From a virus, in the IMG/VR virus record IMGVR_UViG_3300009430_000001, positions 1 to 64,000 of that record: 64,000 nt of DNA, one strand, 5' to 3'. Both the position numbers and the translations under genes were made by a program. Every line of letters begins with the position of its first letter. Position 1 is the first letter of the stretch. A model generated the notes under the pieces. The model had not been told where the DNA came from. It was given only the letters and a program-made list of their open reading frames with translations, and did not search any database. Shown piece by piece: positions 36,802 through 56,840 of this stretch.

Positions 36802-36898
36802 TGGAAACAGATGAAGCAGATGAACGCGCTGCCTGTCACGCAGCACAAAGAAAAAAGGCCCCCGTGGAGGGAGCCTTTGAGTGGGAGGGAAAATCAAA

Positions 36899-36915
36899 AC
36901 TTAGACACAACGCGG
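36899..36915 (+). repeat. 17-bp motif, copy 2 (ACTTAGACACAACGCGG)
   Basis: One variant position; intergenic. Confidence 0.85.
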
Positions 36916-36925
36916 AGCGCAGGTC

Positions 36926-37543
36926 TCAGTCTTTGAATCTGTAGTGGTATGGCTTGTAGTGACTGGGATACATCGCATTGATGGGCCCGAGACGTGCATT
37001 CTGTGCCTCAAGCTGCTCGAGGTCACGGCATGCACGTTCCATGGCGCTGTCACTGTCGAGCTTGGCGAGTAGTGGCAAGCAGGGAATGTAGTGCGTTGCG
37101 CCTTGGAATTTCTTGTTGCCATGGCAAATGATCGTGATGCCGCTGGTCAGCGTGTGATAAGCGCCGGTGCGCATGATCAAGCCGCTAGGCATATGGATCA
37201 TGAACAGCGGTTTGCAGATGCGCGTATTGTGGCTGGCATCATCGGGAAAACCTTCAGGCTCAGGAAGCCGTGGGTCGTCATGTGCCACGAGCTCGATGCG
37301 ATAGTCGCGTTGAGCATTGAACTCATCGAGTGGATCGTAGAGATCGCCGCCCCAGCCGACAGCGATCTTGGTCATGTCGTTAGTGTCAAGCTGTTGCTTG
37401 AGGTCTTGCCGGCGATCTAGTTCGATCGCAATGCGACCGAGGAAGTCGCGGTGGTTGTTGGGGAGTCGGGGTTCGATGTAGCTGTTGAGCATGAACTGCT
37501 TGGTTTTCTTGTCGGTGATACGTGATCCACGGACGTTGTTCAC
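36926..37543 (-). CDS. Hypothetical protein
   Basis: GTGA coupling at 37540-37543. Confidence 0.6.
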   Translation of the reverse strand: MNNVRGSRITDKKTKQFMLNSYIEPRLPNNHRDFLGRIAIELDRRQDLKQQLDTNDMTKIAVGWGGDLYDPLDEFNAQRDYRIELVAHDDPRLPEPEGFPDDASHNTRICKPLFMIHMPSGLIMRTGAYHTLTSGITIICHGNKKFQGATHYIPCLPLLAKLDSDSAMERACRDLEQLEAQNARLGPINAMYPSHYKPYHYRFKD

Positions 37544-38088
37544 GTTTCCTCCTGCTTCTTGCGGTCTTCGCTCTCTTGGTGCTTCCATGTGCCCCACTTC
37601 TCGATGTACTCTGTGGCGGTTGGCACGCGCTTCAGCTTGTGCACTTTGCGCCACTGCTCTTCAGTGGTGTCATGGAACTTGGCAGGGCCGCTGATTTCGT
37701 AAAGCTCGAGATCGAGGGTATCTATGCCTGCTTGAATCATCTGCGTCCACGTATTTGTGGGAGTCCAGGCTTGATCGTCTTCGCTCAGGTTGCGTTGCTG
37801 TATCTTGAGCTCTTCGACGTAACCCGTGCGAAGCACGGCCAAGGCCGCTCGCATAATGACGTGAATAACTAGCGCTGGCTGATGTCTGCTGATGCACTCA
37901 CGATAGGTGAAGTTTGTATAATTAAGTTTGTTCTCACAGCGTCTGATTATCGTGATCAGCTCTTTCACTGTGATGATGTCGTGGCGCCAGGCCACGTGCA
38001 GCAGTGCGTTGGCAACGTCTTGGTGAAGCTCAAGCAAATTGTTGTGGGCTTTGCCGTTTTTTTCAATCAGTCGGTTGTAGATGCTCAT
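37540..38088 (-). CDS. Hypothetical protein
   Basis: GAGG SD before ATG. Confidence 0.65.
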   Translation of the reverse strand: MSIYNRLIEKNGKAHNNLLELHQDVANALLHVAWRHDIITVKELITIIRRCENKLNYTNFTYRECISRHQPALVIHVIMRAALAVLRTGYVEELKIQQRNLSEDDQAWTPTNTWTQMIQAGIDTLDLELYEISGPAKFHDTTEEQWRKVHKLKRVPTATEYIEKWGTWKHQESEDRKKQEET

Positions 38089-38117
38089 GTTGCCTCTTGT
38101 GGTTGAAGTGAATCCAG

Positions 38118-38432
38118 TTATTGATTGGCAGGTTCTTGGAGGATGTCAAACAGGCTGGCCCAGCCTTCAACAGAACCGCCATGGTTATTAATTACCTCTT
38201 TGGCCCTGGAGTTGAGTGGATCTATTTGCTGAACCATGAGGAAGTTGATTCCAGTTTGAGCGATTGCTATTTGACGGGCGTATTCGCTTTTACTGCGTGA
38301 CTTGCGCATGGCAAGACTTGTAACTGTTGCTAGTGTGCAATCGACAAGATAGACGAATGCATGCTCGGTCGTGGTAAATTTTTTGGTGCGAAAGATGTTT
38401 TGATCTTTCTCGGATTTGGTGGCTTTTTTCAT
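38118..38432 (-). CDS. Hypothetical phage protein
   Basis: CTLATV..LAM.KSR.K.EY.RQI.IAQ motif; GGAGG SD. Confidence 0.65.
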   Translation of the reverse strand: MKKATKSEKDQNIFRTKKFTTTEHAFVYLVDCTLATVTSLAMRKSRSKSEYARQIAIAQTGINFLMVQQIDPLNSRAKEVINNHGGSVEGWASLFDILQEPANQ

Positions 38433-39142
38433 GCTGCCTCCTGTAGTTGAATGAGTTTCTGGTCGAGTTGTCGTTTCCTGCTGCCGTGGGCGGGGAACGC
38501 GATAATCACATGGGGTGGACGCTTCCAGCACAGGCGACAGCCGACACATTGCGGCGCACGTGGATCAGGTGCCAGCCTGGAGTGGGGGCACAGCACAGCG
38601 CGGTTGCCGCCGGCTGTGGTCCACGCCGTGCGCTTCTCGCCGGAAGGCACGATCAGGACGGCGTGCAAGCCGATCGCCACCGCGGCATCAGCCTGGGCCT
38701 CGAGCTCGAAGCTGAGGTTGATCGTGATCCGATGGCCCAGCAGCGCATCGAGGTGCGCCGGCTCATGTCGCCACTCCCGCCTGTGGGAGTACATGAAGGC
38801 GGGGCGCTTGCCCACGGCTGCGGACAGGGCGCCGAGGAAGCTGCGCACCTGGCCTGGCGTCTCCCCGGGGACGTCCCCTGCGACACCATATCGCAATGGT
38901 GTTGTGGGCGGAAGACGAAAACGGACCCAGTCGATCATTTGGTCGAACTGCATCACGTCTTTGCCGATGCCGGCGCTGTAGTTGTCCCAGTGCCATGCCA
39001 TGTAGCCCTGGTCGTGATAGCAGGTGCCATCATTCAATGGACAATCGCTGGGGCATGTGTTGCGGCTGGCGGTGATGGCAGCGATTGGGCCCAGCTTGTC
39101 GTTGTTGGTGGGGTACTTGCAGTGGAAGAAGTATTTGGTCAT
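38429..39142 (-). CDS. Gp88-like Cys-rich (possibly Fe-S) phage protein
   Basis: N.K.G......TCP..CP....CY, R..VAGD, YSH, INLS.E, CP...C..C.LC, FPAHG. Confidence 0.7.
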   Translation of the reverse strand: MTKYFFHCKYPTNNDKLGPIAAITASRNTCPSDCPLNDGTCYHDQGYMAWHWDNYSAGIGKDVMQFDQMIDWVRFRLPPTTPLRYGVAGDVPGETPGQVRSFLGALSAAVGKRPAFMYSHRREWRHEPAHLDALLGHRITINLSFELEAQADAAVAIGLHAVLIVPSGEKRTAWTTAGGNRAVLCPHSRLAPDPRAPQCVGCRLCWKRPPHVIIAFPAHGSRKRQLDQKLIQLQEAA

Positions 39143-39149
39143 GGTTTGA

Positions 39150-39383
39150 TCAGTATTCACCAGGAAACAGCACAATCTCGACTGGATAGCGGATCTCGCC
39201 TTTGTCATTGATCTCCACATCGTAGGGATCGCCAACGACGAATTCGCTTGGCTTGAGTCCAGCTCGAAAGAGCTTCTGCTCAACATCACGCATGATGCTG
39301 TGCCAGTCGGGTTCGGGATTCCAGTATTCCGGCGGCTCACTTGGTCGTGGGTCGCGGAACTGGCGGGGGTCGGTGGTAGCCAT
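39150..39383 (-). CDS. Hypothetical protein
   Basis: Chain position. Confidence 0.55.
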   Translation of the reverse strand: MATTDPRQFRDPRPSEPPEYWNPEPDWHSIMRDVEQKLFRAGLKPSEFVVGDPYDVEINDKGEIRYPVEIVLFPGEY

Positions 39384-39462
39384 GGAAGTGATGGAAAGTG
39401 GGTGGGGACTTATATGCCGTCAGAGCGCTTACAGTTGGCCAGCGACGGCAATGCCCCGGGGA

Positions 39463-40443
39463 TCAGGCCTTGATGCCGGCGAGTTCGCGGCAGAAGTCGC
39501 GAGCGACTTCGATGCGGCCCTTGTTGACTCCGAATAGCACGCGGCTGAACTTCTTGATGGCGTTCTGGCCGCTGGGGCTGGTCAGCACCTCAGTGACGGC
39601 ATTGAAGCCGTGCCAGGCGGTGCCGCGGACTCCAGGGATGTCGGTGCCGAGGCCGGTGGTCAGCGCTTCGACCATCGGGTTCCAGTCCCTCAGGTCCTCG
39701 AGCGTCTTGGCACGCACCGGCTTGCCGTCAGCCATGATCGGCCGGGCCAGCTCGGGGGCGTAGACGCGCTTGAGCATTTCGCGGAAGGCCTCGGTGTTCA
39801 TCCTTGTTTCCGCGAACAGGTGGTAGTCCTGGACTTCGTCGTTGAAGGACTCCGTGGCGACATTGATGCTCTTGATCAGTCGCGTGATGTCGCTGTTGAC
39901 ACCTTTGCGGTGGGCCAGGCTGCGCTGGTTCTCGCTGCACATTGCAACTTGTAAAGTATTGCAACAAACCACACGCGTATCGGTGTAGAGAGTGCCGACG
40001 CCAGTCTTGCCATCGTGGCCGAGGTAGCCGACGATGTAGCGCTCGATCTTGTCGTTGGCGAGTACGTTGTCTTCCAGGCCTTTGATCAGGCCAGTGAAGG
40101 CGACCTTGCGGCCTTCGTCGAGCACGACGAAAGTGTCGAGGATGATGTGGTCTTGAATGGCTTCAGCCATCTCGACCAGGCGCTCATTCTGCGCGACCTC
40201 GTACTCATGCCCGGCAACGCCGAGCAGTTCGCCGGTGGTGCCGTGGATCAGGGCGCAGCGGTTGGCTTCGTGGGTCTGGTCGTCCCAGTTGTAGAACAGG
40301 GGCTTCTTGATGACTTCGTAGTTGGCTTTGGCCATCTCGTAAGCCTGGCGGGGTGTGATGGTGATGTCATTGATGCAGAGCTCTTCGCCGTGCCAGGAGC
40401 GAATGCCGCGATTGGTGATTCCGGATTGGAAGTAGCTACCCAT
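39463..40443 (-). CDS. DUF932 family protein
   Basis: WHG, LGV....Y...QN, HDG, T.TRVVC.NTL, H, GTAW..FNAVTE. Confidence 0.85.
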   Translation of the reverse strand: MGSYFQSGITNRGIRSWHGEELCINDITITPRQAYEMAKANYEVIKKPLFYNWDDQTHEANRCALIHGTTGELLGVAGHEYEVAQNERLVEMAEAIQDHIILDTFVVLDEGRKVAFTGLIKGLEDNVLANDKIERYIVGYLGHDGKTGVGTLYTDTRVVCCNTLQVAMCSENQRSLAHRKGVNSDITRLIKSINVATESFNDEVQDYHLFAETRMNTEAFREMLKRVYAPELARPIMADGKPVRAKTLEDLRDWNPMVEALTTGLGTDIPGVRGTAWHGFNAVTEVLTSPSGQNAIKKFSRVLFGVNKGRIEVARDFCRELAGIKA

Positions 40444-40557
40444 TTTCAGGAAGAATGCAGGTTTGGAAGGGGGTGGTGAATGCCCGTGTGGGCAATGAAG
40501 AAAGGCCCCCGCATGATGCGAGGGCTAGGAATCAGCGCAGCATCAGCTGCATGACAT

Positions 40558-40785
40558 TCAGAGCGACAGCGACTGTAAAGCCAATTTCGAGTAGGTCCCG
40601 GTAGCGTGCAGCTCTCTGATGATGTTCGCGGCGCGATTCAAGTCCACGTACTGTGTTGCCTCCCTTGGGTCGTTGACGTGCTGAATGCCGTTGGGCGGCA
40701 ACGTCGATGAAGAAGGAAGGTGATTTGCCTTGAGGAAGGACGCGGAGTCTTGATCCAGAATGACGAAGCGGCATGAGCGGTGCAT
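40558..40785 (-). CDS. Hypothetical protein
   Basis: V.DPREATQY pattern; between hairpins. Confidence 0.5.
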   Translation of the reverse strand: MHRSCRFVILDQDSASFLKANHLPSSSTLPPNGIQHVNDPREATQYVDLNRAANIIRELHATGTYSKLALQSLSL

Positions 40786-40817
40786 GGGGTGGATGGGATG
40801 TCGGGTCGATTGTACGA

Positions 40818-41102
40818 TCAGGCAGACGCTACGGCAAGTCCATTGTAGTGGACTGAAACACTGTGTCCTGCGTCTGTAGTCGCAAGCACAGTTGATAGGT
40901 TGTTCTCGTTGGCGAGGTAGGAAGCGTGCATTTCCATGGCATGGAGCAGCTCAGCTTCGCTGGCGGCTTCGAATACGTAGCTCTCGAGTAGCAGGTTGTT
41001 GATCGGATCTTCGAAGCACACGTGAACCGTGGCCGGTCGCTTGACTGAGCGCACGGTGCTGTTGATCTTGCTGGCAGACGGAATGCGAAGTTCGCGAGAC
41101 AT
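40818..41102 (-). CDS. Hypothetical protein
   Basis: ATG 28 nt downstream of hairpin 41130. Confidence 0.6.
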   Translation of the reverse strand: MSRELRIPSASKINSTVRSVKRPATVHVCFEDPINNLLLESYVFEAASEAELLHAMEMHASYLANENNLSTVLATTDAGHSVSVHYNGLAVASA

Positions 41103-41180
41103 GGGTCTCATGGCGAAGGACGCAGAACAAAGGCCCCCGTGGAGGGACCACGGGAGCCGGAGGGTTCTGTGTTTAGTCGG

Positions 41181-41197
41181 ACTTAGACACAATGCGG
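41181..41197 (+). repeat. 17-bp motif, copy 3
   Basis: Exact ACTTAGACACAATGCGG. Confidence 0.85.
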
Positions 41198-41265
41198 AGC
41201 ATCGGCCGGGGGATCAATCGTCGGGCGGCTCCAGGACCAAGTGGAAACGAAGCCGTGACGATCAA

Positions 41266-41562
41266 TCAGCGGGAGTGTAAACGTCGTCGTCGTTGTGCGC
41301 GGTCGAGTGCTTCGCTCGTTTCCAGGATTGGAGCTTCGCCGCGCTGGATCTTTTTTCCAGCTAGCACACGCTCGAGTTGATGGCGCGGGATGCGCTTCCA
41401 GTCGTTCTCGTGTTTGACATAGAAGTCAACGCGATCGATTCGCTTTGTTCCGCGGCTGTAACGAAAGATTGACGTCTTGATCTCAATGTTGTCGATGATG
41501 GTCTTTTGAGATTCACGCTTATCAAGCGTAATGGCCTTGAGATCGTCGAGGGTGAGTGTCAT
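41266..41562 (-). CDS. Hypothetical protein
   Basis: ATGA coupling. Confidence 0.55.
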   Translation of the reverse strand: MTLTLDDLKAITLDKRESQKTIIDNIEIKTSIFRYSRGTKRIDRVDFYVKHENDWKRIPRHQLERVLAGKKIQRGEAPILETSEALDRAQRRRRLHSR

Positions 41563-42311
41563 GAGGCGGATTCGTCGTTGGTGTACTCCGATGTCCAATA
41601 CAGGAAGTCGTCACGCTTCTGCACGGGCATGATGATGAAGCGCAGAGACACGTCGCCCCAGGGCTTTTTGGTCTTGGACTTCATCTTTTCCCAGCTTTCT
41701 GAATTTATGCCGGAGCGGATCTCCATGGGCATGATGCTGGAGCTGAAGGCGAACTGTGGATGCTTGGCCTCCAGCTTGATGATGATCTCATTGATTACCT
41801 TCATGTAGATCGGATCCCAGAGAATGGGCCGCAAAGCGTTCATCGAGTAGTGACAGGGGAAGATGTTATCGAATGCTTGTACGGTTGGGAATGCGTAAGT
41901 CGCTGGGATCGGCTCATGCGCCAGGCGCGCGTTCTCAAGGAAGATCGTACTGATCTTGCCTTCGTCGTTGAATGCGAGAACAGCGGCGTCATTGGACATC
42001 CACTTTTCGAAGACCTTGAAGTGGATCAGGAGCTCGGGGATCTCCTGGAAATCACCGGGAGTGTGATCACTGAGGCCTGCTCTCAGCGCAACATGGCCGT
42101 TGGTCGCTTCGATGTAGTAGCACTCGAGCGTGGCATCTGAGCGGATGCGCACGAATTCGAGTGCTTCTATGCCCAGGGGTTTGGCGAGCTTGGCGATTTG
42201 TGAAGCGGCCCAAAGCAGGGCGGTGGGCAGGCGCAGCGTACCGCCGGCCGCGGAAGGAGTGTCAGGCACGGTGTGAATGACGGTGGAACCGTAGCTGATG
42301 ATGAGAATCAT
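41559..42311 (-). CDS. DNA polymerase III beta-clamp-like protein
   Basis: IEATNGH.A (cf. ATDGHRL), ..FP...D.IFP, D..YM, IIMP. Confidence 0.55.
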   Translation of the reverse strand: MILIISYGSTVIHTVPDTPSAAGGTLRLPTALLWAASQIAKLAKPLGIEALEFVRIRSDATLECYYIEATNGHVALRAGLSDHTPGDFQEIPELLIHFKVFEKWMSNDAAVLAFNDEGKISTIFLENARLAHEPIPATYAFPTVQAFDNIFPCHYSMNALRPILWDPIYMKVINEIIIKLEAKHPQFAFSSSIMPMEIRSGINSESWEKMKSKTKKPWGDVSLRFIIMPVQKRDDFLYWTSEYTNDESAS

Positions 42312-42520
42312 GGGTTTTCAAAAGTAAATTGCTTGGCAATTCCCGATTCGCCACACTCTATGCACTCGATGTAGCTGTTTTCGTTGAAGTTTAGGTCTCC
42401 TCCACACACGTCAGAGCCATTGTCATACATCAGCACGAGTGTGCTGACTTCAATGCGAAATGGCTCTTCGTTGCCGCACTTGGGGCAGCGTATGCCGGCA
42501 AGACAGTTGGTGTTGGTCAT
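42308..42520 (-). CDS. Zinc-ribbon protein
   Basis: NTNCLAGIRCPKCG...CIECG. Confidence 0.65.
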   Translation of the reverse strand: MTNTNCLAGIRCPKCGNEEPFRIEVSTLVLMYDNGSDVCGGDLNFNENSYIECIECGESGIAKQFTFENP

Positions 42521-44207: not shown

Positions 44208-44226
44208 GGCTTAGGTAGCAATGGAT

Positions 44227-45805: not shown

Positions 45806-46160
45806 GGCTTTCTTGTGTAAGCTTGGAGTGGAGGAGCTTGGCTCGCTGGCTGGCCCAGCGCGGGCAGCGCAGGAGATCGACGTAGTCCTGGAGCGTGGGC
45901 ACCATGCCCAGGTCCTCCAGGACGTGTTGCTCGGCGAGCAGGGAGGTCGGTACGCGCCGGCCTCGGGAGTTGGTGATCGTGTCACCAAACAGGGCAACCG
46001 CATCGGCGATGCCCTGGGTGTGATGGGCCAACATGCGATGCATGAGGCGATCAGTGCCAGCGCGGCCGCGGTCCATCCAGCGATGCAGCGCCATGTAGTC
46101 ATCGGGGTCACCCCCGAATGCATTGGCGCTGCTGATGGCGTGGTAGCTGTAATGGCTCAT
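45747..46160 (-). CDS. DUF6915-like protein
   Basis: H.Y.HA.SSA..FGG.P.DY..LH.WMD..HR...HH..GI....FG..ITNS.G..VP...AEQHV.EDLG. Confidence 0.7.
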   Translation of the reverse strand: MSHYSYHAISSANAFGGDPDDYMALHRWMDRGRAGTDRLMHRMLAHHTQGIADAVALFGDTITNSRGRRVPTSLLAEQHVLEDLGMVPTLQDYVDLLRCPRWASQRAKLLHSKLTQESHALPHHDHDGNPEPGSHPR

Positions 46161-46717
46161 AGTGTTATGGTCGAGTAGTCTTGGGTGATGACGTTGTTGT
46201 TGTGGTTGATCTCGATGCTGACGCCATGTTCGATGCCGTCCTCGAGCTCTTCCTCGGTGGCTTGGCGAATGATGATTTCACCGAATCCACCTTCATTGAT
46301 CTCGAAGCCCGGGTGGTAGCCGTAGGCCACATCCCAGGCGATGGCGTCAAGCGCCTCGCTGATGCTGCTGGGATCGGGAGCGACCACGGGTTTCCAGCAC
46401 ATGGCTTTGCTGTCGTATTGCTGTCCCACGGTTCGCTGATAATTAAATTCAGCGGGCATGTCTTCATCGAGGAGCTGGTTGAGTTCTTTTAAGATTTCGG
46501 TGTTGCACTCGGCGGGTTCGACGGTGATGTCGGAAATATCGCCGGAATCGCCTGAGCCCTCGTACGTGATCGTGATCTTGTGGACACGTTCGTCCTTGGA
46601 GCGCAGGTAGAGAAAGATGCCCTTGAGAAGGAGGCATCCCTTCTGCGCTTGATCCTTGAGTTGTTTTTGGTACTCGATGATTTCGGCGAGAACTTCGTTG
46701 ATGTTGATGGGGTTCAT
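46157..46717 (-). CDS. DUF6878-like protein
   Basis: YEGSGDSG.I and GFEINEGG.G. Confidence 0.7.
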   Translation of the reverse strand: MNPININEVLAEIIEYQKQLKDQAQKGCLLLKGIFLYLRSKDERVHKITITYEGSGDSGDISDITVEPAECNTEILKELNQLLDEDMPAEFNYQRTVGQQYDSKAMCWKPVVAPDPSSISEALDAIAWDVAYGYHPGFEINEGGFGEIIIRQATEEELEDGIEHGVSIEINHNNNVITQDYSTITL

Positions 46718-47772: not shown

Positions 47773-47900
47773 TAGCTCAACAGTGGAGCCGGCCTCGGTG
47801 GGGGTGGAAGCGGTGGAGATGATGGTCACGGGTGTCCATGAGAGGGGACACAGAACGAAGGCCCCCGTGGAGGGGGCCATGGAGCGGAGGGGCTTGCTGG

Positions 47901-48428: not shown

Positions 48429-48500
48429 TGGTTGGTGAGTGAAGGACATGAAAACGAGGACCCCGCCTGATGGCGAGGGCTCGTGGTGGGCATAAGCCCG

Positions 48501-48545: not shown

Positions 48546-48713
48546 TCAGAACGACACGTTGCGCGCGCGGCGGAAGCCGACCGTGCCATCAGGGAACTGG
48601 ATGCGCACGAAGCCGTGCGGTGCAGGCGTCAGTTGACGCACAGGGCAGCTGGGGCCTTGCACGGGCACAGCGGCGGAAGCGGTGGCGCGAACGGTCGTGG
48701 AAGTGGGGGCCAT
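48546..48713 (-). CDS. Small hypothetical protein
   Basis: MAPTSTT..GFVRIQFPDGTVGF; 30 nt after the hairpin. Confidence 0.55.
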   Translation of the reverse strand: MAPTSTTVRATASAAVPVQGPSCPVRQLTPAPHGFVRIQFPDGTVGFRRARNVSF

Positions 48714-48774
48714 GGAGTGTTCCATGAAGTGGGCAGCAAACCGAGGCCCCCGTGGAGGGGACCAGAGGCTGGGG

Positions 48775-49242
48775 TCAGGACCACTCGTCTGGCCATTCGT
48801 CTTTGGTGATGAGGATGTACCGGAGGTTGCACACCTCGGTGGGATTGTTGAAGCGATCTTCTGGTGCTTGATCGACAGGCCACCAGTCATCTTCGTGAGG
48901 CGACGATGCATAGTCGATGCAGGTGACGTCGATGGTCTTGAGCCAGGCGGCCGGCGCCTGGAAGTGGACCCAGAGGACAGCCGTCGGTGAATCCTTGGGC
49001 CAGTCGAGGCGGAGCTCGGCTTCGGACAGGTCGGCGCCCGGGAGCTGGCCCTGGGCCCAGTCGGCGAGCGATGGGTCGTAGCTGGCCCAAAGTTCGGGGT
49101 CGTGCGAGGCCACGAGAGCACTGACGGCTTCGAGAGAAAAGGCCTTGCATTGGTCATCGAGCACGGTGAGGGCGTACTCGATGGATTTGGTGCGATCGGG
49201 ATCGCTGAAGGCGCGGACGGTGGTGGGAGTGAAGGGGGCCAT
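48775..49242 (-). CDS. Acidic hypothetical protein
   Basis: MAPF start 25 nt after the hairpin. Confidence 0.65.
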   Translation of the reverse strand: MAPFTPTTVRAFSDPDRTKSIEYALTVLDDQCKAFSLEAVSALVASHDPELWASYDPSLADWAQGQLPGADLSEAELRLDWPKDSPTAVLWVHFQAPAAWLKTIDVTCIDYASSPHEDDWWPVDQAPEDRFNNPTEVCNLRYILITKDEWPDEWS

Positions 49243-49302
49243 GGTCAGATGGAAGGGCAATGAGCCAAGGCCCCCGGGGAGGGGCCAATGGGGGCAATGA
49301 TT

Positions 49303-49767
49303 TCATTGAACACCATTTGGGTATTCAATGATGCCAGGGATGTCGCGATCTGGCAGTTGATTGGAAAACCAGCGAAGCAGGTTTTCCTTGACTTTTGGGT
49401 TGTGGGTTCTGCCGGCCTGGTGGAGCAGGGCCATCAGAGCACCTAAAGGGAAGCCCTTGGATGGTTGTCGGAGTGTTTTCCAATCAGTGATTCCATGTTC
49501 ACGAAGAATGTGTGTGGCCTCGTAGAAGATGCATTGGGCAATTGCCAGTTCCTGGGAGTAGGCATTATGGATTTCCCATTGTTCAGGGGACTGATCGGTG
49601 GTGGGCAGGTAATCGTCGATGATGTAAGGCCAGGGGAAGCCATTGTCGATTCCTTGCGGAAGGACGATTTCGCCGTTTTCATGGGCATGTCCCAGGAGGT
49701 CAGCCGCCTTGAGTGGGTCAAGTTTGGCCATCAGGAGCAGGTTTGTGCGATCGAAGGGGGCAGTCAT
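49303..49767 (-). CDS. Hypothetical protein, paralogue of 51028..51561
   Basis: APF.RT..L.+A.++P..AA+.L..AH, F.WP, GFPL.A, I.YPNG shared. Confidence 0.7.
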   Translation of the reverse strand: MTAPFDRTNLLLMAKLDPLKAADLLGHAHENGEIVLPQGIDNGFPWPYIIDDYLPTTDQSPEQWEIHNAYSQELAIAQCIFYEATHILREHGITDWKTLRQPSKGFPLGALMALLHQAGRTHNPKVKENLLRWFSNQLPDRDIPGIIEYPNGVQ

Positions 49768-49852
49768 TGCGAAATCAGCAGAACACATGAAAAAGGCCCC
49801 CGCGGAGGGGGCCATGGAGTCGGAGGGTTACTCTGCATCCAGGAGTTGAACA

Positions 49853-51031
49853 TTGCCAGCGAGGCTTCCGAATTCTGAGGAGTGGCGCAGGGCCGTGATC
49901 GATGCCGCCGGCTATGGCGCCGCGGCTTCGGGAGCTGGTGCCCTGGCGGCGCTGTTGATGCGCCCCGAGCAGGCAGAGCCTGGGATCGAGGGCCGGCCAG
50001 ATCCGGATGCACCGCCGACGCAGGAGCGTGATCAGGCGGTGATCGATGGTGCATTGGCCGGCCTGGCCGGTGGTGCACTGGGGGCTGGTGCCGCTTCGCT
50101 GTGGATGAACCGCAAGGCGGGTAGCCCTGAAGTGGTGGCCCGGGTGCAGAGCACTCGAGGGGGTGGGGGTCAGCCGCCTGCTGCGGCGCCTCCCCCCGCT
50201 CCGAAAGGACCCCCGGGGGGTGGCGGTGAGATCGAGATCGATCTGGATGGCAGTGCCAGGATGGCATTGAAGGCCGTGAATGATCAGGTGATACGTGCAG
50301 TGCCGACACTTTCGAAGGCACTGGGGATTCCGGTTGAAGAGATGGCTGAGATTGTTGCAGGTGAAGCTGCTGATTTTATGGCAAAAGCTGATCCAGCTTT
50401 GTATGGTGAGATGATTCAGATGGCTCGCAAGTATGATTTTGATAAAGCTGAGAATCTTGATAATTTTGGCGCAGAGGCAAGGCGGAGACTGGGATGGACA
50501 ATGAGGGAAGCAGCTGATAACGCTGCGGCGGAAATACGCAAAAGTGAAGACAGCCTTAGTGGGGCTGTCCAGAATGCCTACAAAGAAATGTACGATGTGC
50601 ATCCTTTGAATAAAGCATTGTACTTGTTGATGCATGGAGTTGGCTCTGATCCTGACAAAGAGTCAAGAGCTGCGCGGATGGCGGCAGCTGCCATGATTGA
50701 TGCATCAATGGCGAAAACGCCGTATGGCGGGGTGTTTGGGCATGGAATCAGGGCACCTATCATGAATGCAGAGAATACGCTAGATATGGCAGATCAGTTG
50801 ATAGCGGAAACCGGCAGTGGTCCTTACCACCTTCTGCGTGAATTGGCTCATGGTGTTGGTGACAATTCACTGGATGACTGGGAGCTGCCAGAGCATTTGC
50901 GGCCTGGCGCTCCGGTGTCTCCTCATGAGAACTGGTGGTATGCGACGCCTGAGAATCGATGGCTGAATCGCCACGATCCCCAGCAGCCCATGAGACACCC
51001 GGCCTGGCAGCCGCGGCCACGCAGGACCTAG
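49853..51031 (+). CDS. Gly-zipper protein, possibly virion-internal
   Basis: Two GxxxG-rich hydrophobic segments; AGGAG SD before TTG. Confidence 0.6.
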   Translation: MPARLPNSEEWRRAVIDAAGYGAAASGAGALAALLMRPEQAEPGIEGRPDPDAPPTQERDQAVIDGALAGLAGGALGAGAASLWMNRKAGSPEVVARVQSTRGGGGQPPAAAPPPAPKGPPGGGGEIEIDLDGSARMALKAVNDQVIRAVPTLSKALGIPVEEMAEIVAGEAADFMAKADPALYGEMIQMARKYDFDKAENLDNFGAEARRRLGWTMREAADNAAAEIRKSEDSLSGAVQNAYKEMYDVHPLNKALYLLMHGVGSDPDKESRAARMAAAAMIDASMAKTPYGGVFGHGIRAPIMNAENTLDMADQLIAETGSGPYHLLRELAHGVGDNSLDDWELPEHLRPGAPVSPHENWWYATPENRWLNRHDPQQPMRHPAWQPRPRRT

Positions 51032-51561
51032 ATGGTCCCGTTGGGGTAGAAGATGTTGCTCTCGCTTGCAGTGGGGAACACCCTTGCCAGGTGATCAGCA
51101 CCGATCACCAGTGATTCTGGGTGTTGAAACCTGCTTGCGAAGTCAAGGTAGACGTAAACGGCTTGCAACGGGAAGCCGGGAATGGAAGGAGCTGACTCGA
51201 GGCCAAGCTCGGCCTCGATCTGGGCTTGACGCATGCCAGGCCGACTGACGTTGCCGGTGGCCTGAAGGACTTGGCTGACTCGTCGTTGCAGGTGGTAGGC
51301 GTAGACGAGGATCTCGTCTGCAATTGCTGCGATGGTGGCGTAGTCAGCCTTGATTGAGGCGAAGTATGCCTCTTCTGCGTCGCTCAGTTCGTCGTCTTCT
51401 GGCTGGGTGTGAGCAAGGAGCTCAGGCCAGCCGAAGGGGCCACCTTCTCCTTCAGGAAGAGTGAAGTGGCTCTCGGTATGCGCTGTGCGCAGAAATTCTG
51501 CTGCGCCTTGGGGGTTGATGTGAGCGAGGTCGAGGAAATGCGTACGGTTGAAGGGGGCCAT
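51028..51561 (-). CDS. Hypothetical protein, paralogue of 49303..49767
   Basis: See paralogue; ATG 26 nt after the hairpin. Confidence 0.7.
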   Translation of the reverse strand: MAPFNRTHFLDLAHINPQGAAEFLRTAHTESHFTLPEGEGGPFGWPELLAHTQPEDDELSDAEEAYFASIKADYATIAAIADEILVYAYHLQRRVSQVLQATGNVSRPGMRQAQIEAELGLESAPSIPGFPLQAVYVYLDFASRFQHPESLVIGADHLARVFPTASESNIFYPNGTI

Positions 51562-51648
51562 GGAGAAGATGCAACAGCATCGAACAAAGGCCCCCGAGGA
51601 GGGCAAGGGAGCGTGTGTACTCTGTGGGACAGCAGATGAGGGACCGCA

Positions 51649-51849
51649 ATGATTGGCAGGCTTGCTGTGGGAGCATTGCTTGGCGCTGCAGGCGGTGGCC
51701 TGCTGGGGACGATCCCGGGAGTGCTGGCGCAGAACAATGTCGGAATTGATTTGGGCCCAATGGGCGCCTGGGGCTATAGCTTGGATCCCGTTAGCGGAAA
51801 TGTAGTGTACACCGGCAGAGGGCCGGGTGGATTCAGTGAGCTCACTTAA
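51649..51849 (+). CDS. Small Gly-zipper membrane protein
   Basis: GALLGAAGGGLLG. Confidence 0.55.
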   Translation: MIGRLAVGALLGAAGGGLLGTIPGVLAQNNVGIDLGPMGAWGYSLDPVSGNVVYTGRGPGGFSELT

Positions 51850-51855
51850 TCGACA

Positions 51856-52074
51856 GTGCCGGGATTTCATCCAACCGTAGGCGCCTTGTCTGGCGCTTTG
51901 GTTGGCGCGATGGCCTTGGCAGCGCTTGAGATAATTGATCAGGCTTATGACAAAGAGGGTTGGGATGCGGCGAAGCAGCGGGTTGATGAATTCATCAATA
52001 ATCTGCATCGCCAGAGGGCTGAGCGCCAAGGGGCTGAACGGCCTAGGCGGATGATCCGCATTCAGCAGGCTTGA
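51856..52074 (+). CDS. Small Gly-zipper membrane protein
   Basis: GALSGALVGAMALAAL. Confidence 0.55.
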   Translation: MPGFHPTVGALSGALVGAMALAALEIIDQAYDKEGWDAAKQRVDEFINNLHRQRAERQGAERPRRMIRIQQA

Positions 52075-52104
52075 GTACCCTGGGGGCACAGGCTTCTTCT
52101 TTCC

Positions 52105-52716
52105 ATGGCAGTCAAGAGATACGCCGGTAGTAGCAATGTCGTGGATGACATCTTGGCGGCTGTTGGCGACAATGCATATACTAGGGCGTGGAGTGACGCC
52201 ATGGGAAATGCGATACGGCCTGTGGATAGAATGATTGCTTCTGACTCTGATCGGTTTGCGTCTTCCTTGAAAGAAATGGAAGGGCTGATTAACCGTGGAG
52301 TCGAGGAAGCGAAAGGGCAGGGGTTATCGCAGGCTGCAGGGGAGCAGCTGCTTGCAAGGTTGAATCGGCTTGATCCTAGCGGTGCTCTCGCTGAAAACAT
52401 GGGAGCTGGGCTGAGTCAGGCAGTGGAAAGAGCAAAGCGGAATGGGTCTTCGGTGGGGAGTGAATTTGCGGGTTTGGTATTTGATGCTCGAGAAGATCTG
52501 AAACCGGAGTTGATCGATGCGTATCTGAAGCAGCATCCGCCCTCTGATGTTCACATGATGACCAAGGCGGGCGGATTGCTTCATGCAGCAGCAGGCATGG
52601 CGCCTTCTGCGTATGGCATCCCGGCTGCGGGAGCAGGTCTTGCTGCGTGGGGCCTGCATGATTATCTGCAGGCCCAGCAGCAGGCGGAGAAGGAGTCTCA
52701 GCTTCCAATGAGCTGA
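52105..52716 (+). CDS. Hypothetical protein with C-terminal Gly-zipper
   Basis: YGIPAAGAGLAAWGL; TACCCTGG 29 nt upstream. Confidence 0.65.
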   Translation: MAVKRYAGSSNVVDDILAAVGDNAYTRAWSDAMGNAIRPVDRMIASDSDRFASSLKEMEGLINRGVEEAKGQGLSQAAGEQLLARLNRLDPSGALAENMGAGLSQAVERAKRNGSSVGSEFAGLVFDAREDLKPELIDAYLKQHPPSDVHMMTKAGGLLHAAAGMAPSAYGIPAAGAGLAAWGLHDYLQAQQQAEKESQLPMS

Positions 52717-52720
52717 GGGC

Positions 52721-53047
52721 TTAGCAGTGATTGAGCTCTTCTGCGAGGAGCTGGTTGTCCAGTAAGGCTGCCTGGATCTCGTCGGGAGACATGTTGTCAG
52801 CTCCTCTACTGCGGTTGAGATCAGCGGCTTCGGGAATGATGTTACTCCAGTCGTCGGTGAGCTCGGGGCAGTTGTGTTGGCTGATGACGTGAGAAAGATC
52901 TCGCTGCTCCCAGAATTCTTTGATTTCATGGGGGTCATCGAGTTCTTCAGGCGTAACAGCCAGCATGTCGGAGAAGTCTCCTCCGTAGGGCTCGGCTCGA
53001 CTGTCGAGGTATGAGGTGAGATTGAATGGTAGGTTCATCGTGGTCAA
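52721..53047 (-). CDS. HNH-like small protein
   Basis: DLSHVI......EL....SNI..E...LNRSRG..NM. Confidence 0.5.
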   Translation of the reverse strand: MTTMNLPFNLTSYLDSRAEPYGGDFSDMLAVTPEELDDPHEIKEFWEQRDLSHVISQHNCPELTDDWSNIIPEAADLNRSRGADNMSPDEIQAALLDNQLLAEELNHC

Positions 53048-53931
53048 GAGGAGAAGAAGGCTGTTATGTTGTAAGTCGTGGTGTTGGTGATTATTCTTGC
53101 CAAGGTGACGGCATTAGAGTTGGTGAATTTTGTTGATTGTTTTTGATGTGGTTTTAGCAACAGGGTGTTGACATCTAGGGCGTCTTCGAGCAAGAGCTGG
53201 GGAAAGAAGCCGTGGAGTGGGTTGTTGATGTATTTTCTGTGCCATTGAATGGACTTGCGGGGAGCAGCTAAAGATGATATAGCTAAAGAATTGTCTTTGA
53301 ATTCGTTTAGGATGTTTTGGTAGTCTGCGACAAGATGTCTGTTGGTGATTTCCTTTGAAGAAATAAATGCTATTTCTTCGTCTTCCAGTTGGGTGATAAG
53401 TCGCTTTCTGCCTTCGATCCTCTGGGTTAGAGGTGAGCTGATGATGCCAAGTGAGGCAAATGCCAAAATGCCCGTTGCAGCATCGCCCAAGAAGGCTGGA
53501 AAGTCGTATTGCTTTGCTCTTTTAAGTCGGCTTTCTTTGATTCGTAGTTCGTTGTAGTAGATTTCGTTGAAGCGGGTGATTTTGGTTAAAATGGAATGAG
53601 CGTCTTTGGCAATGCGCTGATTCTTGAGGATTTTACGTTCAAGATTTGCATGTAGTGATCCCGGCTGTATGATGTCATATAGCCGGGTTTGTCCTGATGG
53701 TTTTTGATAGACCTGGGCAAATAGGTGATCACCTGCCCTGTATTGACAGAACAGGTCAGCAGCCTCTGATCGATGTTGTGACCGTCTGTCGAAGCAGGTG
53801 ATTTCAGTTGGTGGTCCGTTTTCAGGGATGAGGGTCAGGCGCCTGCCAAGTCGGAATGGGATGACTTCAGCGACGGCGCCACTGATGAGTCTGGTAGTAG
53901 CGAAAATGTTTGGATTTTGAAAAGTAGTCAT
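53044..53931 (-). CDS. Low-GC hypothetical membrane/coiled-coil protein
   Basis: AT-rich ORF with one hydrophobic segment. Confidence 0.6.
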   Translation of the reverse strand: MTTFQNPNIFATTRLISGAVAEVIPFRLGRRLTLIPENGPPTEITCFDRRSQHRSEAADLFCQYRAGDHLFAQVYQKPSGQTRLYDIIQPGSLHANLERKILKNQRIAKDAHSILTKITRFNEIYYNELRIKESRLKRAKQYDFPAFLGDAATGILAFASLGIISSPLTQRIEGRKRLITQLEDEEIAFISSKEITNRHLVADYQNILNEFKDNSLAISSLAAPRKSIQWHRKYINNPLHGFFPQLLLEDALDVNTLLLKPHQKQSTKFTNSNAVTLARIITNTTTYNITAFFSS

Positions 53932-53982
53932 GTTGGCGATGGGGTGAAAGATTGAGCGAGCGTCAGCGAGCTGGCGCTAATG

Positions 53983-54013
53983 AAAAAAACCACCCCGTAG
54001 TGGGGTGGCTTTT
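53983..54013 (-). terminator. Intrinsic terminator
   Basis: CCACCCC-ACTAC-GGGGTGG followed by T7 on the minus strand. Confidence 0.7.
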
Positions 54014-54033
54014 GAGTCATGAAGGCTCTGGAC

Positions 54034-54444
54034 TCACTTGGCGCGACGCAGCGCGTTCCCTTCCGGGTAGCGTTTGTCAGCCAGATGGTCCGAGAAGGCG
54101 TAAACGCCAATGCCAGACCGCTGAACGGTCTTGTTCTCCTCGTCTCGGGTGACGACGCCGAGACTTAGTCCGCAGCCGTTTTCAACGGGAGACTCGAACG
54201 AGATGAACAGAGGGCCTGCCTCGTGAAAGACGCCGTCGGCGTTCTCGAGGGTGATGCGGGCGTCCTTACGGGCAGCCGCAGCGGACTCCTTGCGGCACTC
54301 GGGAGAACCAGCAACGGGAGCACTGGCGGACTCCTTCTTGGAGTCCTGGGGCGCCGAGCCATTGCCATTACTGGCGGGGCCTTCGACCTTCCTTTCGGTG
54401 GTCTCGGCACTGGTCTCGACGGTTTGGGTGGCGGCTTCAGCCAT
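54034..54444 (-). CDS. Hypothetical protein
   Basis: Strong codon bias; bounded by a hairpin and a terminator. Confidence 0.7.
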   Translation of the reverse strand: MAEAATQTVETSAETTERKVEGPASNGNGSAPQDSKKESASAPVAGSPECRKESAAAARKDARITLENADGVFHEAGPLFISFESPVENGCGLSLGVVTRDEENKTVQRSGIGVYAFSDHLADKRYPEGNALRRAK

Positions 54445-54534
54445 GATGGATGAACTTGGGATTGTGTGGTGCCCATCTCCACTGAGGGCATAAAAACAAG
54501 GCCCCCGTGGAGGGGCCTTTGGATGAGGAGGGGA

Positions 54535-54693
54535 TCAGCGCATGACGCGCTGAATGACTGGAGACGGCACTGGCCGGTCTAGTTGACCGAATGTGCCGTA
54601 TGCGGAGCGGAGCTCGCGCCATTGCACGATGGTCATGCAGATGACCATACCTGCAATGGTGACGCAGGCATGAGGGGTGTAATCGCGATTCAT
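54535..54693 (-). CDS. Small hypothetical protein (52 aa, below the ORF track cutoff)
   Basis: MNRDYTPHACVTIAGMVICMTIVQW..; ATG 28 nt after hairpin 54721. Confidence 0.5.
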   Translation of the reverse strand: MNRDYTPHACVTIAGMVICMTIVQWRELRSAYGTFGQLDRPVPSPVIQRVMR

Positions 54694-54750
54694 GGTGAAT
54701 CACGCGAAGGGCATAAAAGGAAGGCCCCCGATTACTCGAGGGCCTTGAGG

Positions 54751-54924
54751 TTAGATATTGGAATTGATGGCGATCAATTCTTCGCATTCTTGATGAATGC
54801 GATCAAGGATTTCCATAAGATCTGGATCTTGATCCATCTCCCATGCAATCCAGAAATGATTGCGGGAATCCTGTTCAAAGGATTCAAGGGCGGCCTGAGC
54901 GGCCTCGGAGTATGGAGCATCCAT
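54751..54924 (-). CDS. Small acidic protein (57 aa, below cutoff)
   Basis: MDAPYSEAAQAALESFEQD..; TGATG coupling. Confidence 0.55.
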   Translation of the reverse strand: MDAPYSEAAQAALESFEQDSRNHFWIAWEMDQDPDLMEILDRIHQECEELIAINSNI

Positions 54925-55127
54925 CAGAGGAGCTCCAGGACGATTTCATCTATGGCGTCCTGAAGGGAGGCGCCAGCCTTCATGCGGGAATCGACATCCC
55001 GAGCCACGTGGCCCAGGTTGTCATAGCCCATCATGAAGACGGATGAAAGAGGCTGATACGCCTCAATGGCCAGCGCGATGCGCTGGAGATGGAGCGGCGC
55101 GGCGCTCCAGGAAGGATTGAGAGCCAT
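54924..55127 (-). CDS. Hypothetical protein
   Basis: ATG 25 nt after the hairpin. Confidence 0.6.
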   Translation of the reverse strand: MALNPSWSAAPLHLQRIALAIEAYQPLSSVFMMGYDNLGHVARDVDSRMKAGASLQDAIDEIVLELL

Positions 55128-55179
55128 GGCTCTATTGAAGGACACTGATGAAAGGCCCCCGTGGAGGGGCCTTGTGGGG

Positions 55180-55416
55180 CTAGCCGTAGTTGGCTGGGAG
55201 TTCAACGTCTTTGGCGAGGATCTCGTGGAAGAGATCGTCGGCCTGAGGTGTGAACTCAGTGCCTTCACGGCGTTGATCGAGCACTTGCTCGAAGGTGAGT
55301 GGGGAGTCGCACGGCATGAGTGGTGCCGTGCGGATGATGGGAACGTCCCACATGTCGTGGAGCGATCCCATGGAGTCCTCCATGGTGTAGGAGGACATGA
55401 AGAATTGAGCTTGCAT
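55180..55416 (-). CDS. Hypothetical acidic protein
   Basis: ATG 28 nt after the hairpin. Confidence 0.6.
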   Translation of the reverse strand: MQAQFFMSSYTMEDSMGSLHDMWDVPIIRTAPLMPCDSPLTFEQVLDQRREGTEFTPQADDLFHEILAKDVELPANYG

Positions 55417-55478
55417 GATGCTGCGCTCGAGGGACAGTAAACAAAGCCCCCCGTGGAGGGGGCCTTGTGGCGATGGAG

Positions 55479-55652
55479 CTACTCGAGCTCTGCAAGCCAC
55501 ATGGATTCCATGTGATGGCCAATGAGCATTGCCGCAGCATAGTCAGGGTCTGTGCTGGGCGGAATGTCAGTGTTGTGGCGAAGTCTTGCACGCTCGATTG
55601 CTTGATTGAGTGAGTTGATCATCCATGAGTGATCAACGAGTGAGATTGTCAT
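55479..55652 (-). CDS. Small hypothetical protein
   Basis: ATG 29 nt after the hairpin. Confidence 0.55.
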   Translation of the reverse strand: MTISLVDHSWMINSLNQAIERARLRHNTDIPPSTDPDYAAAMLIGHHMESMWLAELE

Positions 55653-55849
55653 TGCTGATGCAATTGAAGGACACTGATTAAAGGCCCCCGCGGAGGCCAA
55701 TGCCGGCTCCAGAGAGGGTTTGCCGGCCAACTCCTGCGCCTGAAATTGCCTCCAGGGGGCAAAGTGTAATGACCGGGGGTAATTGTGAGACTGCTTGCTA
55801 TACTAGCCGTCGCAGTTTGATATACCCCCGGGGTGTAAGTGTGGGACTT

Positions 55850-55866
55850 CCGCATTGTGTCTAAGT
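55850..55866 (-). repeat. 17-bp motif, copy 5 (inverted)
   Basis: CCGCATTGTGTCTAAGT on + strand; extends to 21-bp identity with 35411..35431. Confidence 0.85.
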
Positions 55867-56301
55867 CTAGCCAAAGCGAAAGATCCCTGTGGTACCAACG
55901 GGTCTGGGGCCTGTGGGTATAGCTGAATAGCTGGATGCATGGCTGTATGTCGACATGCGCCGCTGGTCGCGGCAGCAGTCGTATTGAATGTGGAGATGGG
56001 CTGATGGATGGGTGAGATCCCTTGCAGCGACTGGGATCTCGAGGAATATGCGCCCGGTGCCGCACCGTCTGGGCGGTATGCGGCGGGGCTTATGAAGGCT
56101 TACGTGCGTTTGCTGTAGATGTGCACAGGGGGGCACTAGCAGCCGAGGTAGCACGTGACGCTTATGAGGACGCATGCACGTGAGCTGCAGATGCACACGG
56201 GGGCATTGGCAGCTGATGATGCGCATGGAGCTGATGCAGCATTGGTATGCTGATGATTCATTTGCTTTCATGCGAGCGGAAGCGAGCATGGGGAGCAAAT
56301 G

Positions 56302-56326
56302 AAAAAAGAGTCCCCGTAGGGACTCT
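56302..56326 (-). terminator. Intrinsic terminator
   Basis: AGAGTCCC-TACG-GGGACTCT-TTTTT. Confidence 0.75.
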
Positions 56327-56332
56327 GGTGCA

Positions 56333-56596
56333 CTACTTGGCGTAGATGCAGACGCGGGCATTGCCCGCCTTAGATTTGATGACCTTTCCGAAGGCGTCAG
56401 GCGCCTCCTCGTCTGGCCCGAAGCCAGACAGGACGTGCACGCCGATGAGGGAAGCCAAGAACTCTTCGGCCTTGACTTCAGACCCGAGGGCCTGAGCAAG
56501 CCTGGCCTTGAACTTCTTGGTGAAGCCCAAGTTACCAAGCCAAAGTACGTCCTTGGTGTCGGTGGAGGCGTTGGCCTGAGTGGTGGCGTTAGCCAT
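56333..56596 (-). CDS. Hypothetical protein, first gene of the minus-strand early array
   Basis: Strong codon bias; hairpin 29 nt upstream, terminator downstream. Confidence 0.7.
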   Translation of the reverse strand: MANATTQANASTDTKDVLWLGNLGFTKKFKARLAQALGSEVKAEEFLASLIGVHVLSGFGPDEEAPDAFGKVIKSKAGNARVCIYAK

Positions 56597-56840
56597 GTGT
56601 CGCTACTGCGAACTACAGCAATCAAAGGTCCCCGTGGAGGGACACATGATTCTGTAGTGGTATGTGTAGCTTTGGTATGTGTGTCCTGATTTAGGGGTAG
56701 GTGGGGTTTTTTATGCAGGGCCCCCGTTGGAGGGCTAGGGAGGGGCGTGTCTCGATTATGTTTTTAACGATTTTCCGCGCGCGTATAGCGGCTAGTTGGC
56801 TTGTACTAGCTGTGTACCCTGAGGCGGTCGCATGCTGCTG

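Follow-up and report, generated by a model that had tools for sequence, protein, structure and literature searches.

Why does a phage place almost the same GC-rich hairpin, always in the same orientation, in front of one small early gene after another? The question is raised by the first 64,000 nucleotides (nt; hereafter the window) of the virus record IMGVR_UViG_3300009430_000001, in which about 16 small early genes of a cyanophage-like virus are preceded by an almost invariant GC hairpin. The record is complete (96,597 bp, terminal repeats, 61% G+C) and also encodes a full-length factor of the sigma-70 family, a primase-helicase, a terminase and tail fibres. Among 50,697 phage records only Synechococcus phage S-EIVl gave a match to its portal-like protein (49% identity), and no near-identical phage records were found. 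On this identity the phage is treated as cyanophage-like and its host is presumed. The hairpin element is best read as a compact variant, lacking a sigma-70 promoter, of the promoter-early stem-loop (PeSL) cassettes of T4-type phages and not as a hairpin promoter of the N4 type. The function that we favour for it, at about even chances, is that of an RNA-level intergenic punctuation cassette which doubles as a recombination seam.

A hairpin family confined to the early gene array

The core of the element reads CCCTCC-N-CGGGGGCCTT in RNA sense, that is on the minus strand. Scanning with the plus-strand pattern AAGGCCCCCGNGGAGGG at up to two mismatches gave 12 matches, all on the plus strand, against 0.11 expected from shuffled sequences, and a looser search of all 96,597 bp with a 12-mer returned no family member outside 36.8-56.7 kb. 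The 11-mers of the core were the most over-represented of the genome while their reverse complements occurred 0 times. A covariance model (R1) built on 30 copies recovered 15 members in the genome, all in the minus-strand sense, all intergenic and all within 36.8-56.7 kb, namely the 12 pattern matches and three variants (54707-54752, 48442-48491 and 40488-40534). A sixteenth variant (56720-56735), which scores under the threshold of the model, was recognised by eye. The one-oriented, intergenic and array-confined family described in the first-pass annotation of this DNA is thus real.

In RNA sense the first hairpin (HP1), (A)AGGCCCC-UCCNC-GGGGGCCUU, is a GC hairpin of conserved sequence, followed by a U-rich linker of 7-9 nt and then by a near-invariant UG plus YCC. 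The UG, found as TG 9-10 nt past the stem, usually opens a second small hairpin (HP2) that is specific to each copy. In most copies of this phage a start codon without a Shine-Dalgarno sequence stands 24-29 nt after ...CCUU, with starts chosen by shared N-termini; the fixed spacing noted earlier was borne out, and it depends in part on the choice of starts, as had been admitted at the time. Exceptions were the 53 nt at copies 36871 and 54514 and some copies with an earlier ATG inside the box. Across 31 copies from this phage and its relatives, the first ATG opening an open reading frame (ORF) of at least 40 codons was located 23-31 nt after ...CCTT in 16, and most of the remaining copies had an earlier ATG at ~6 nt, within the TG box itself. 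Tetramers resembling a Shine-Dalgarno sequence were present in the 20 nt before the start in none of 14 hairpin-led genes versus 8 of 24 genes led by the TACHCTG box discussed below. In copies that have an upstream gene, 7-22 nt separate its stop codon from the hairpin. Five copies (49809, 51603, 55697, 56641 and 56720) have no upstream same-strand gene, in agreement with the earlier remark that several follow none.

Distribution in related phages

A motif scan of relatives had been proposed along with that of the genome, and it located the 17-mer in several copies in four contigs. Seven copies were found in a complete 90-kb viral contig (G001) with a portal 60% identical to that of this phage, five in a contig from the same metagenome as G001 (G002), and six and three in the lake-metagenome contigs L064 and L115, respectively. 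Within each contig all copies had one orientation (exact-pattern scans, among the matches listed), and across these genomes, whose portal proteins are just ~60% identical to that of this phage, the 17-mer varied solely at the free loop position. Among the matches listed, multi-copy contigs in the viral and metagenome scans were phage-like relatives of this genome, and the remaining matches in viral contigs, metagenomes and 185,579 species genomes were single per genome and close to the chance estimate. As the matches listed from cellular genomes were single and at chance level, the element is not a host repeat, and a dispersed palindrome of the REP/BIME/MITE-like kind was rejected. Array genes with homologues in the relatives were few: on the minus strand 54034-54444 alone, plus embedded plus-strand genes such as 52105-52716.

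Two more distant complete genomes (G006 and G007, 47% portal identity) gave no 17-mer, and S-EIVl, which shares the genome layout, has no such repeat. G006 (IMGVR_UViG_3300017766_004544; L225-L229) carries a cassette of its own at about 60.3-74.5 kb. The order of terminator hairpin, tail UUUUUUAUUGCCC, second hairpin and ATG, the single orientation and the setting in a small-gene array are alike in the two phages. They differ in that the first hairpin of G006 is variable and strong with a full U-tract, while the conserved part is the second hairpin CAGCAGTGCAT (7 copies), which begins ~10 nt past UUUUUUAUUGCCC and forms just before each ATG. The conserved sequence of G006 lies ~24 nt further downstream than in the element described here, and neither the 17-mer nor the phage sigma factor accompanies it.

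The core as a seam of cassette exchange

The 17-nt core is the seam at which single-gene cassettes have been inserted, deleted and replaced in related phages. G002 and G001 are 80-98% identical in the array region, and at a place with a single core in G001 there are two in G002, which enclose a further 241-bp cassette; the alignment resumes exactly at the first base of the core. A second cassette has been replaced between two cores of the same pair, where homology ends 42 nt after one core start and returns 28 nt before the next core. L115 and L064 are 92.6% identical over one cassette, and their alignment stops 16 nt into the core with different genes following. The comparison of relatives for gain and loss breakpoints, suggested in the first-pass annotation, thus yielded three events that break at the core.

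The proposal that the element is a cassette junction therefore stands as an evolutionary role. No match to a tyrosine recombinase or integrase (PF00589) was found in the genome. The sole serine-recombinase domain (PF00239, E 2.7e-18) is in a 142-aa ORF (16894-17322, plus strand) that adjoins the tail-fibre genes, 20 kb from the array, near a low-GC stretch at 14-16 kb (GC 53.5%). This resolvase ORF may be an invertase for tail-fibre switching. The lack of a tyrosine integrase and the placement of the resolvase among tail-fibre genes make homologous exchange likelier than an integron-like system.

RNA structure and termination

Several features point to a signal acting in RNA. Sense folds contained 29 G.U pairs versus 15 in antisense folds, and the sense fold was the stronger in 20 of 30 copies. 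In copy 56641 two compensatory substitutions, C>U / G>A, preserve a base pair. Lower stems, seen in several copies and mostly in the relatives, differ in sequence from copy to copy (partner-swap p=0.005). The 34 nt after HP1 were more strongly folded than shuffled sequence, with a mean z of -1.46 and values below -1 in 24 of 31 copies, and the half-leaders of HP2 folded better with their native partner (p ~1e-4, 26 non-redundant copies). Among the options offered previously, an RNA processing or stabilising signal fits best with the sense G.U pairs, the compensatory change, the copy-specific lower stems and HP2.

The two halves of the element appear to serve different genes. Stem energy was about -17 kcal/mol in copies with an upstream same-strand gene versus about -10 kcal/mol in those without (Mann-Whitney p=0.0014), which suggests that the hairpin serves the upstream message. 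Copies without such a gene have weak stems and keep the 3' half; in the divergent gap at G001:8976 only CGGGGGC-UUUU-N-UGCCC is left, 27 nt before the ATG. The same tail and box are found behind the ordinary terminators 56307 and 53990, whose stems are unrelated. Retention of the 3' half without a hairpin and after unrelated stems indicates that it serves the downstream gene.

Stems were always GC-rich with 2-6 U in the first 8 nt after the stem. By a rough terminator score (hairpin plus U-tract), copies 49809, 47874, 41146 and 36871 were good, 55460, 54514 and the variant at 48442..48491 borderline, and the rest poor. Termination by itself was thus rightly judged insufficient, since relatives conserve the loop and no more than about one copy in three scores as a terminator. 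Ordinary terminators with other loops and full U-tracts are present in the window as had been described (Table 1). Weak copies in the 54.5-55.7 kb run would let transcription read through, and the 49.8-kb block begins with a strong copy. Extended stems occur in copy 56641 and in about half of the copies of the relatives. No RNase III gene was found in the phage; the control Synechococcus carries one.

Promoters, polymerases and the phage sigma factor

Sigma-70-like sites were at chance level in the 18.5 kb of the array (7 versus 6.8 expected), where gaps are only ~60-75 nt. Upstream of the copies at the array head there are AT-richer -10-like hexamers, for example CATAAT at 56755-56760. A sigma-70-family gene of the phage (18187-19485, minus strand) is present in this phage and in G001 and absent from G006; its nearest phage homologues are 27-29% identical and give no information on the host. 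A TACCCT box has the same distribution, with 25 occurrences of TACHCTG on the plus strand of this phage, 29 of TACCCT in G001 (19 as CCATACCCT) and none in G006. In the form TACYCTG (a TAnnnT-type -10) it stands 24-32 nt before middle and late genes. Because sigma factor and box occur together and are both missing in G006, the box, rather than the hairpin, is likely the promoter of the phage sigma factor, and the TACYCTG box is on this sequence evidence probably recognised by it. TACHCTG was not found on the array's own strand inside the array, so that the early genes should depend on host polymerase.

The rest of the genome had been named as a place to look for an RNA polymerase, and the search turned up neither a gene nor a two-barrel motif. 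PF00940 (T7-type polymerase) gave no candidate, a weak negative as the controls were silent too. No DxDGD-type two-barrel motif was found in ORFs of at least 250 aa except in the primase. No conserved large enzyme without an assigned function was found either. A very divergent polymerase is still conceivable. A 1380-aa protein is of low complexity and had no usable protein atlas match.

A model for the element

Under the favoured reading, host RNA polymerase would start at a few upstream sites and transcribe through the array. HP1 would end or insulate the upstream message, through partial intrinsic termination in copies with a good U-tract, and would shield its 3' end after a cut in the single-stranded linker. 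This cut would fall in the U-rich single strand between the two hairpins and would more likely be made by RNase E or J than by RNase III. Sites of this kind are favoured by cyanobacterial RNase E, whose cuts lie in single-stranded stretches with A at -3 and U at +2 (PMC8682795). The linker and HP2 would then become a short, structured, G-poor 5' leader of the next gene, whose start would need no Shine-Dalgarno sequence, and the common core would let cassettes move between phages.

Several observations weigh against this model. The core is kept letter for letter with one free loop position despite saturated synonymous sites between the genomes, and a terminator or RNase site, which needs structure only, leaves such conservation unexplained. 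Only about 5-6 of 16 copies pass the rough terminator score and the 'U-tract' of the relatives often lies inside an extended stem. Most copies in the window have no lower stem and consist of a 7-9 bp stem only, and the partner-swap test for HP2 on the 12 copies of the window alone was not significant (p=0.10). The divergent gaps at 49.8 kb, 51.6 kb and G001:8976 (67-87 nt) still contain the 3' half, the tail and the TG box, but neither a same-strand gene upstream nor any other recognisable promoter, which is how a promoter would look; mainly from these three gaps, a promoter-like role of the 3' half is still conceivable. The presumed host, moreover, has the 49% portal identity to S-EIVl as its sole basis.

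It is probable that some factor reads the sequence of the core as well as its structure. A more specific and rather less likely possibility is that a dedicated factor of this lineage recognises the 17-nt core and acts through it on all early cassettes together, the core being a hairpin-dependent start signal for host polymerase, a site of processive antitermination or one of RegA-like global shut-off, and at the same time the currency of cassette exchange. One candidate factor may be an arginine-rich protein of 45 aa, perhaps carried in with the virion ejection proteins. Its Arg/Lys-rich ORF (56832..56969, plus strand; C-terminus ...RPRNGRKKMRGQGR) adjoins the array head and is kept there in four motif-bearing genomes, including G001, G002 and L064; it was not found in G006 by tblastn.

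Alternative explanations

Conservation of sequence rather than structure would also be expected of an unconventional promoter, in which the core and the TG start region ~10 nt downstream recruit a polymerase or a modified host polymerase, each cassette is a transcription unit of its own and the 5' arm is the terminator for the gene before, so that terminator and promoter would overlap in one compact element. The broken-stem copies and the half element at G001:8976 keep CGGGGGC-TT-N7-TGYCC 24-29 nt from the ATG, the single-gene minus-strand units 51561-51028 and from 49767 have gaps of 85-87 nt with no other promoter-like sequence, sigma-70-like promoters do not exceed chance in the 18.5 kb, and HP2 would serve as a 5'-terminal stabilising hairpin. 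We nevertheless regard this as rather doubtful: the searches for a T7-type domain, a DxDGD-type motif and a conserved large enzyme found no polymerase, the phage sigma factor tracks the TACCCT box instead, and core and box are unlike -35 and -10 elements at any workable spacing. Strong stems go with an upstream gene, so that the hairpin serves the upstream message, and the hexamers upstream of the array-head copies mean that these copies can sit in a 5' untranslated region. Compatible with the punctuation model, and in itself unlikely, is an operator for an RNA-binding regulator that reads the HP1 loop (U-C-C-x-C) and upper stem for antitermination or for the later shut-off or destruction of early messages like that by T4 RegA. 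In the lambda N-boxB complex one pentaloop base is flipped out, and here a single loop position varies across five genomes, as would be seen in a loop that is contacted. Without such a regulator one hairpin after another would add up to a block on a polycistronic transcript, and the 45-aa ORF tracks the motif. This ORF, however, shares a transcript from a TACCCTG box with genes for virion-type proteins, and its product could simply condense DNA or be ejected; in copy 41146 the 'loop' bases are paired within a longer stem, and the co-occurrence comes from very few independent genomes.

It is very unlikely that the copies are plain intrinsic terminators carried along with duplicated genes and alike by shared ancestry. 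GC-rich stems, U-rich tails, four well-scoring copies (49809, 47874, 41146 and 36871) and the paralogy of some downstream genes are in keeping with such an origin. Yet the paralogues are 29% identical while their elements keep the core, most downstream genes are mutually unrelated and of no known family, distant relatives have the identical loop and 3' arm, no gene precedes at least five of the copies and about ten have poor tails, and the spacing to the next ATG is fixed. We give hardly any credence to an integron-like site-specific recombination site or an N4-type template-strand DNA hairpin promoter, for which the cassette breakpoints at the core, the single orientation and an inverted repeat that could extrude as a DNA hairpin might be cited. 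Against the former are the missing tyrosine recombinase, the location of the only resolvase domain among tail-fibre genes, and conservation at the hairpin tip rather than at the base as in attC. The latter had been put forward in the first-pass annotation and was not upheld: the searches turned up no gene for a virion or other RNA polymerase, the loop is of 5 nt instead of 3, the plus-strand hairpin would have C.A mismatches where the RNA has U.G pairs, and the phage sigma factor goes with another box.

Further candidates were rejected individually. A sigma-54-like GG-N10-GC has the wrong spacing, and if the box is taken as a sigma-70 element (-35, -10 or extended -10), the alignment shows no conserved partner for it. 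The invariant TG as part of an NTG start codon was in frame in only 4 of 12 copies, which is the chance level. A trans-acting ribozyme or guide RNA does not fit, since C instead of U precedes the free position, two copies have G at that position and no complementary sequence exists elsewhere in the genome. The box UGUCCUUCAAU in two copies matches 7 of 12 positions of the cyanobacterial boxA, which we take to be GAACCUUGAAAA, and the other copies and the relatives do not match; a nut-type boxA was not adopted as the likeness is confined to those two copies, though the loop pattern fits.

Comparison with known systems

Composite PeSL units have been described in the T4-type phages RB49/phi1, T4/PST and KVP40/nt-1 (PMC2839356, PMC4122927). 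As with these, the element is a repeated intergenic composite with a stem-loop directly past the stop codon and in one orientation, is concentrated in a variable region of small genes annotated without function (all copies here are within 36.8-56.7 kb), and marks the breaks of gene gain, loss and replacement between related phages. It differs in that just 24-29 nt separate stem and ATG, with no sigma-70 promoter and no -35/-10 pattern in the alignment, in that the sequence of the stem-loop including the loop is the conserved part, and in that the next gene has a second small hairpin and no Shine-Dalgarno sequence.

The RNase III sites of T7 and T3 are hairpins that precede the individual early genes within one polycistronic transcript of the host polymerase. 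They leave a protective hairpin on the upstream product, and their loop, in T7, is not known to be conserved. Several copies of the relatives resemble them with a lower stem, internal loop and upper stem of about two turns, whereas most copies in the window have the 7-9 bp stem only. Phage N4 has three hairpin promoters, whose 3-nt loops form on the template strand, and injects a giant polymerase. The small hairpin, the conserved loop bases and the fixed distance upstream of early genes are shared with N4, and the 16 copies, 5-nt loop, sense-strand G.U pairs and missing polymerase gene set the present element apart.

Individual copies and neighbouring genes

The copies of the family, the ordinary terminators of the array and examples of the TACYCTG box are listed in Table 1.

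Table 1. Hairpin elements, terminators and TACYCTG boxes in the window
Feature	Position	Strand	Score (R1) or basis	Start codon	Description
Loop variant GCCCUCCAACGGGGGC	56720..56735	-	by eye		array head, divergent gap, no upstream same-strand gene
Copy 56641	56611..56653	-	38.4 bits	ATG 56596	short stem GUCCC/GGGAC plus 12-bp lower stem
Copy 55697	55667..55709	-	29.9 bits	ATG 55652	weakened 5' arm; preceded by strong terminator, then 570 nt without same-strand gene
Copy 55460	55430..55472	-	48.1 bits	ATG 55416	12-bp stem
Element copy	55138..55180	-	47.4 bits	ATG 55127	
Loop variant AAGGCCCUCGAGUAAUCGGGGGCCUU	54707..54752	-	26.9 bits	ATG 54693	tail and box as family
Copy 54514	54484..54526	-	47.5 bits		conserved gene 54034-54444 begins 53 nt downstream
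Copy 51603	51573..51615	-	34.2 bits	ATG 51561	broken stem, divergent gap; adjoins plus-strand TACTCTG at 51618
Copy 49809	49779..49821	-	43.5 bits	ATG 49767	perfect 7-bp stem, U5 tail, divergent gap; adjoins plus-strand TACTCTG box at 49829
Element copy	49253..49295	-	45.8 bits	ATG 49242	
Element copy	48729..48771	-	42.1 bits	ATG 48713 (or 48725)	
Stem variant CCUCGCC-AUCA-GGCGGGG	48442..48491	-	20.1 bits		family tail UUUUCAUGUCCUUC; after CCGCATTGTGTCTAAGT motif
Copy 47874	47844..47886	-	47.8 bits		heads 6.5-kb close-packed operon 47829-41266
Copy 41146	41116..41158	-	41.4 bits		after CCGCATTGTGTCTAAGT motif; alternative 11-bp stem takes in 'loop' bases
Stem variant GCCCUCGCAUCAUGCGGGGGC	40488..40534	-	18.7 bits		tail CUUUCUUCAUUGCCC
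Copy 36871	36841..36883	-	44.0 bits	ATG 36801	U.G pair in stem; after CCGCGTTGTGTCTAAGT motif
Ordinary strong terminator	56307..56326	-	sequence, terminator score		unrelated stem, family-type tail UUUUUCAUUUGCUCC
Ordinary strong terminator	53990..54008	-	sequence		unrelated stem, family-type tail UUUUUUUCAUUAGCGCC
Ordinary terminator	35837-35854				other loop, full U-tract
TACYCTG box (examples)	1109, 3772, 19453, 49829, 51618, 52076, 56815, 58221	+			

That the array genes lie on the minus strand is evident from Pfam matches (DUF932 at 39463-40443 and DUF6878 at 46157-46717), from overlapping stop and start codons and from paralogues among them. Proteins downstream of the elements matched no Pfam or PHROG family and are mostly unrelated to each other. 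A paralogue family with MAPF.../MTAPF... N-termini comprises the minus-strand genes 49303-49767, 51028-51561, 48775-49242 and 48546-48713, of which the first two are 29% identical (E 2e-14) and have been duplicated along with their own hairpin and the adjoining plus-strand TACTCTG box. Plus-strand genes are embedded in the array, each after a TACYCTG box (52105-52716, 56832-56969, 49853-51031 and 56966-57688), so that copies 56641/56720, 51603 and 49809 sit in divergent gaps. Two of these genes, 52105-52716 and 56832-56969, are conserved in the relatives; a protein-pattern search with the embedded 203-aa protein gave no match.

An asymmetric 17-nt motif, CCGCRTTGTGTCTAAGT, occurs in seven copies, on the minus strand at 57938, 48512, 41192, 36910, 35426 and genome position 76709 and on the plus strand at 55855. 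Three of them lie 21-34 nt upstream of a family hairpin. Since it is missing from G001, the motif is specific to this phage and not part of the hairpin family. Its sole plus-strand copy is in the ~570 nt between the strong terminator 56307 and the next hairpin (55730-56300), a stretch without a convincing minus-strand gene that also holds several -10-like hexamers (e.g. TAGTAT) and could be a promoter region or a small RNA.

The GC skew of the plus strand was +0.1 to +0.26 throughout whatever the gene direction (35-57 kb versus the rest). As the plus strand is G-rich, the minus-strand early genes are C-rich at third codon positions (50% C, 23% G) and their messages G-poor. The primase-helicase (27637-30063, minus strand, 808 aa) has an AAA_25 domain and, near residue 74, the only DIDGD-type acidic motif of the genome, which from its sequence would fit a primase-polymerase N-terminal domain. 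No tRNA genes were found, and Rfam gave nothing at gathering thresholds and only two sub-threshold chance matches in the array.

Implications for early gene regulation and exchange

Early small genes are where phages keep their host-takeover and anti-defence functions, and how such genes are expressed and exchanged has been detailed for few lineages. The array described here suggests that a freshwater cyanophage-like lineage related to S-EIVl uses the T4-type principle, punctuation combined with a recombination seam, in a far more compact form, in which the unit has no host-type promoter, its genes have no Shine-Dalgarno sequence and the hairpin is conserved in sequence. If the core is read by a specific factor, the two would constitute a new regulatory protein-RNA (or protein-DNA) pair, and the core would be a handle for spotting early genes in uncultured relatives.

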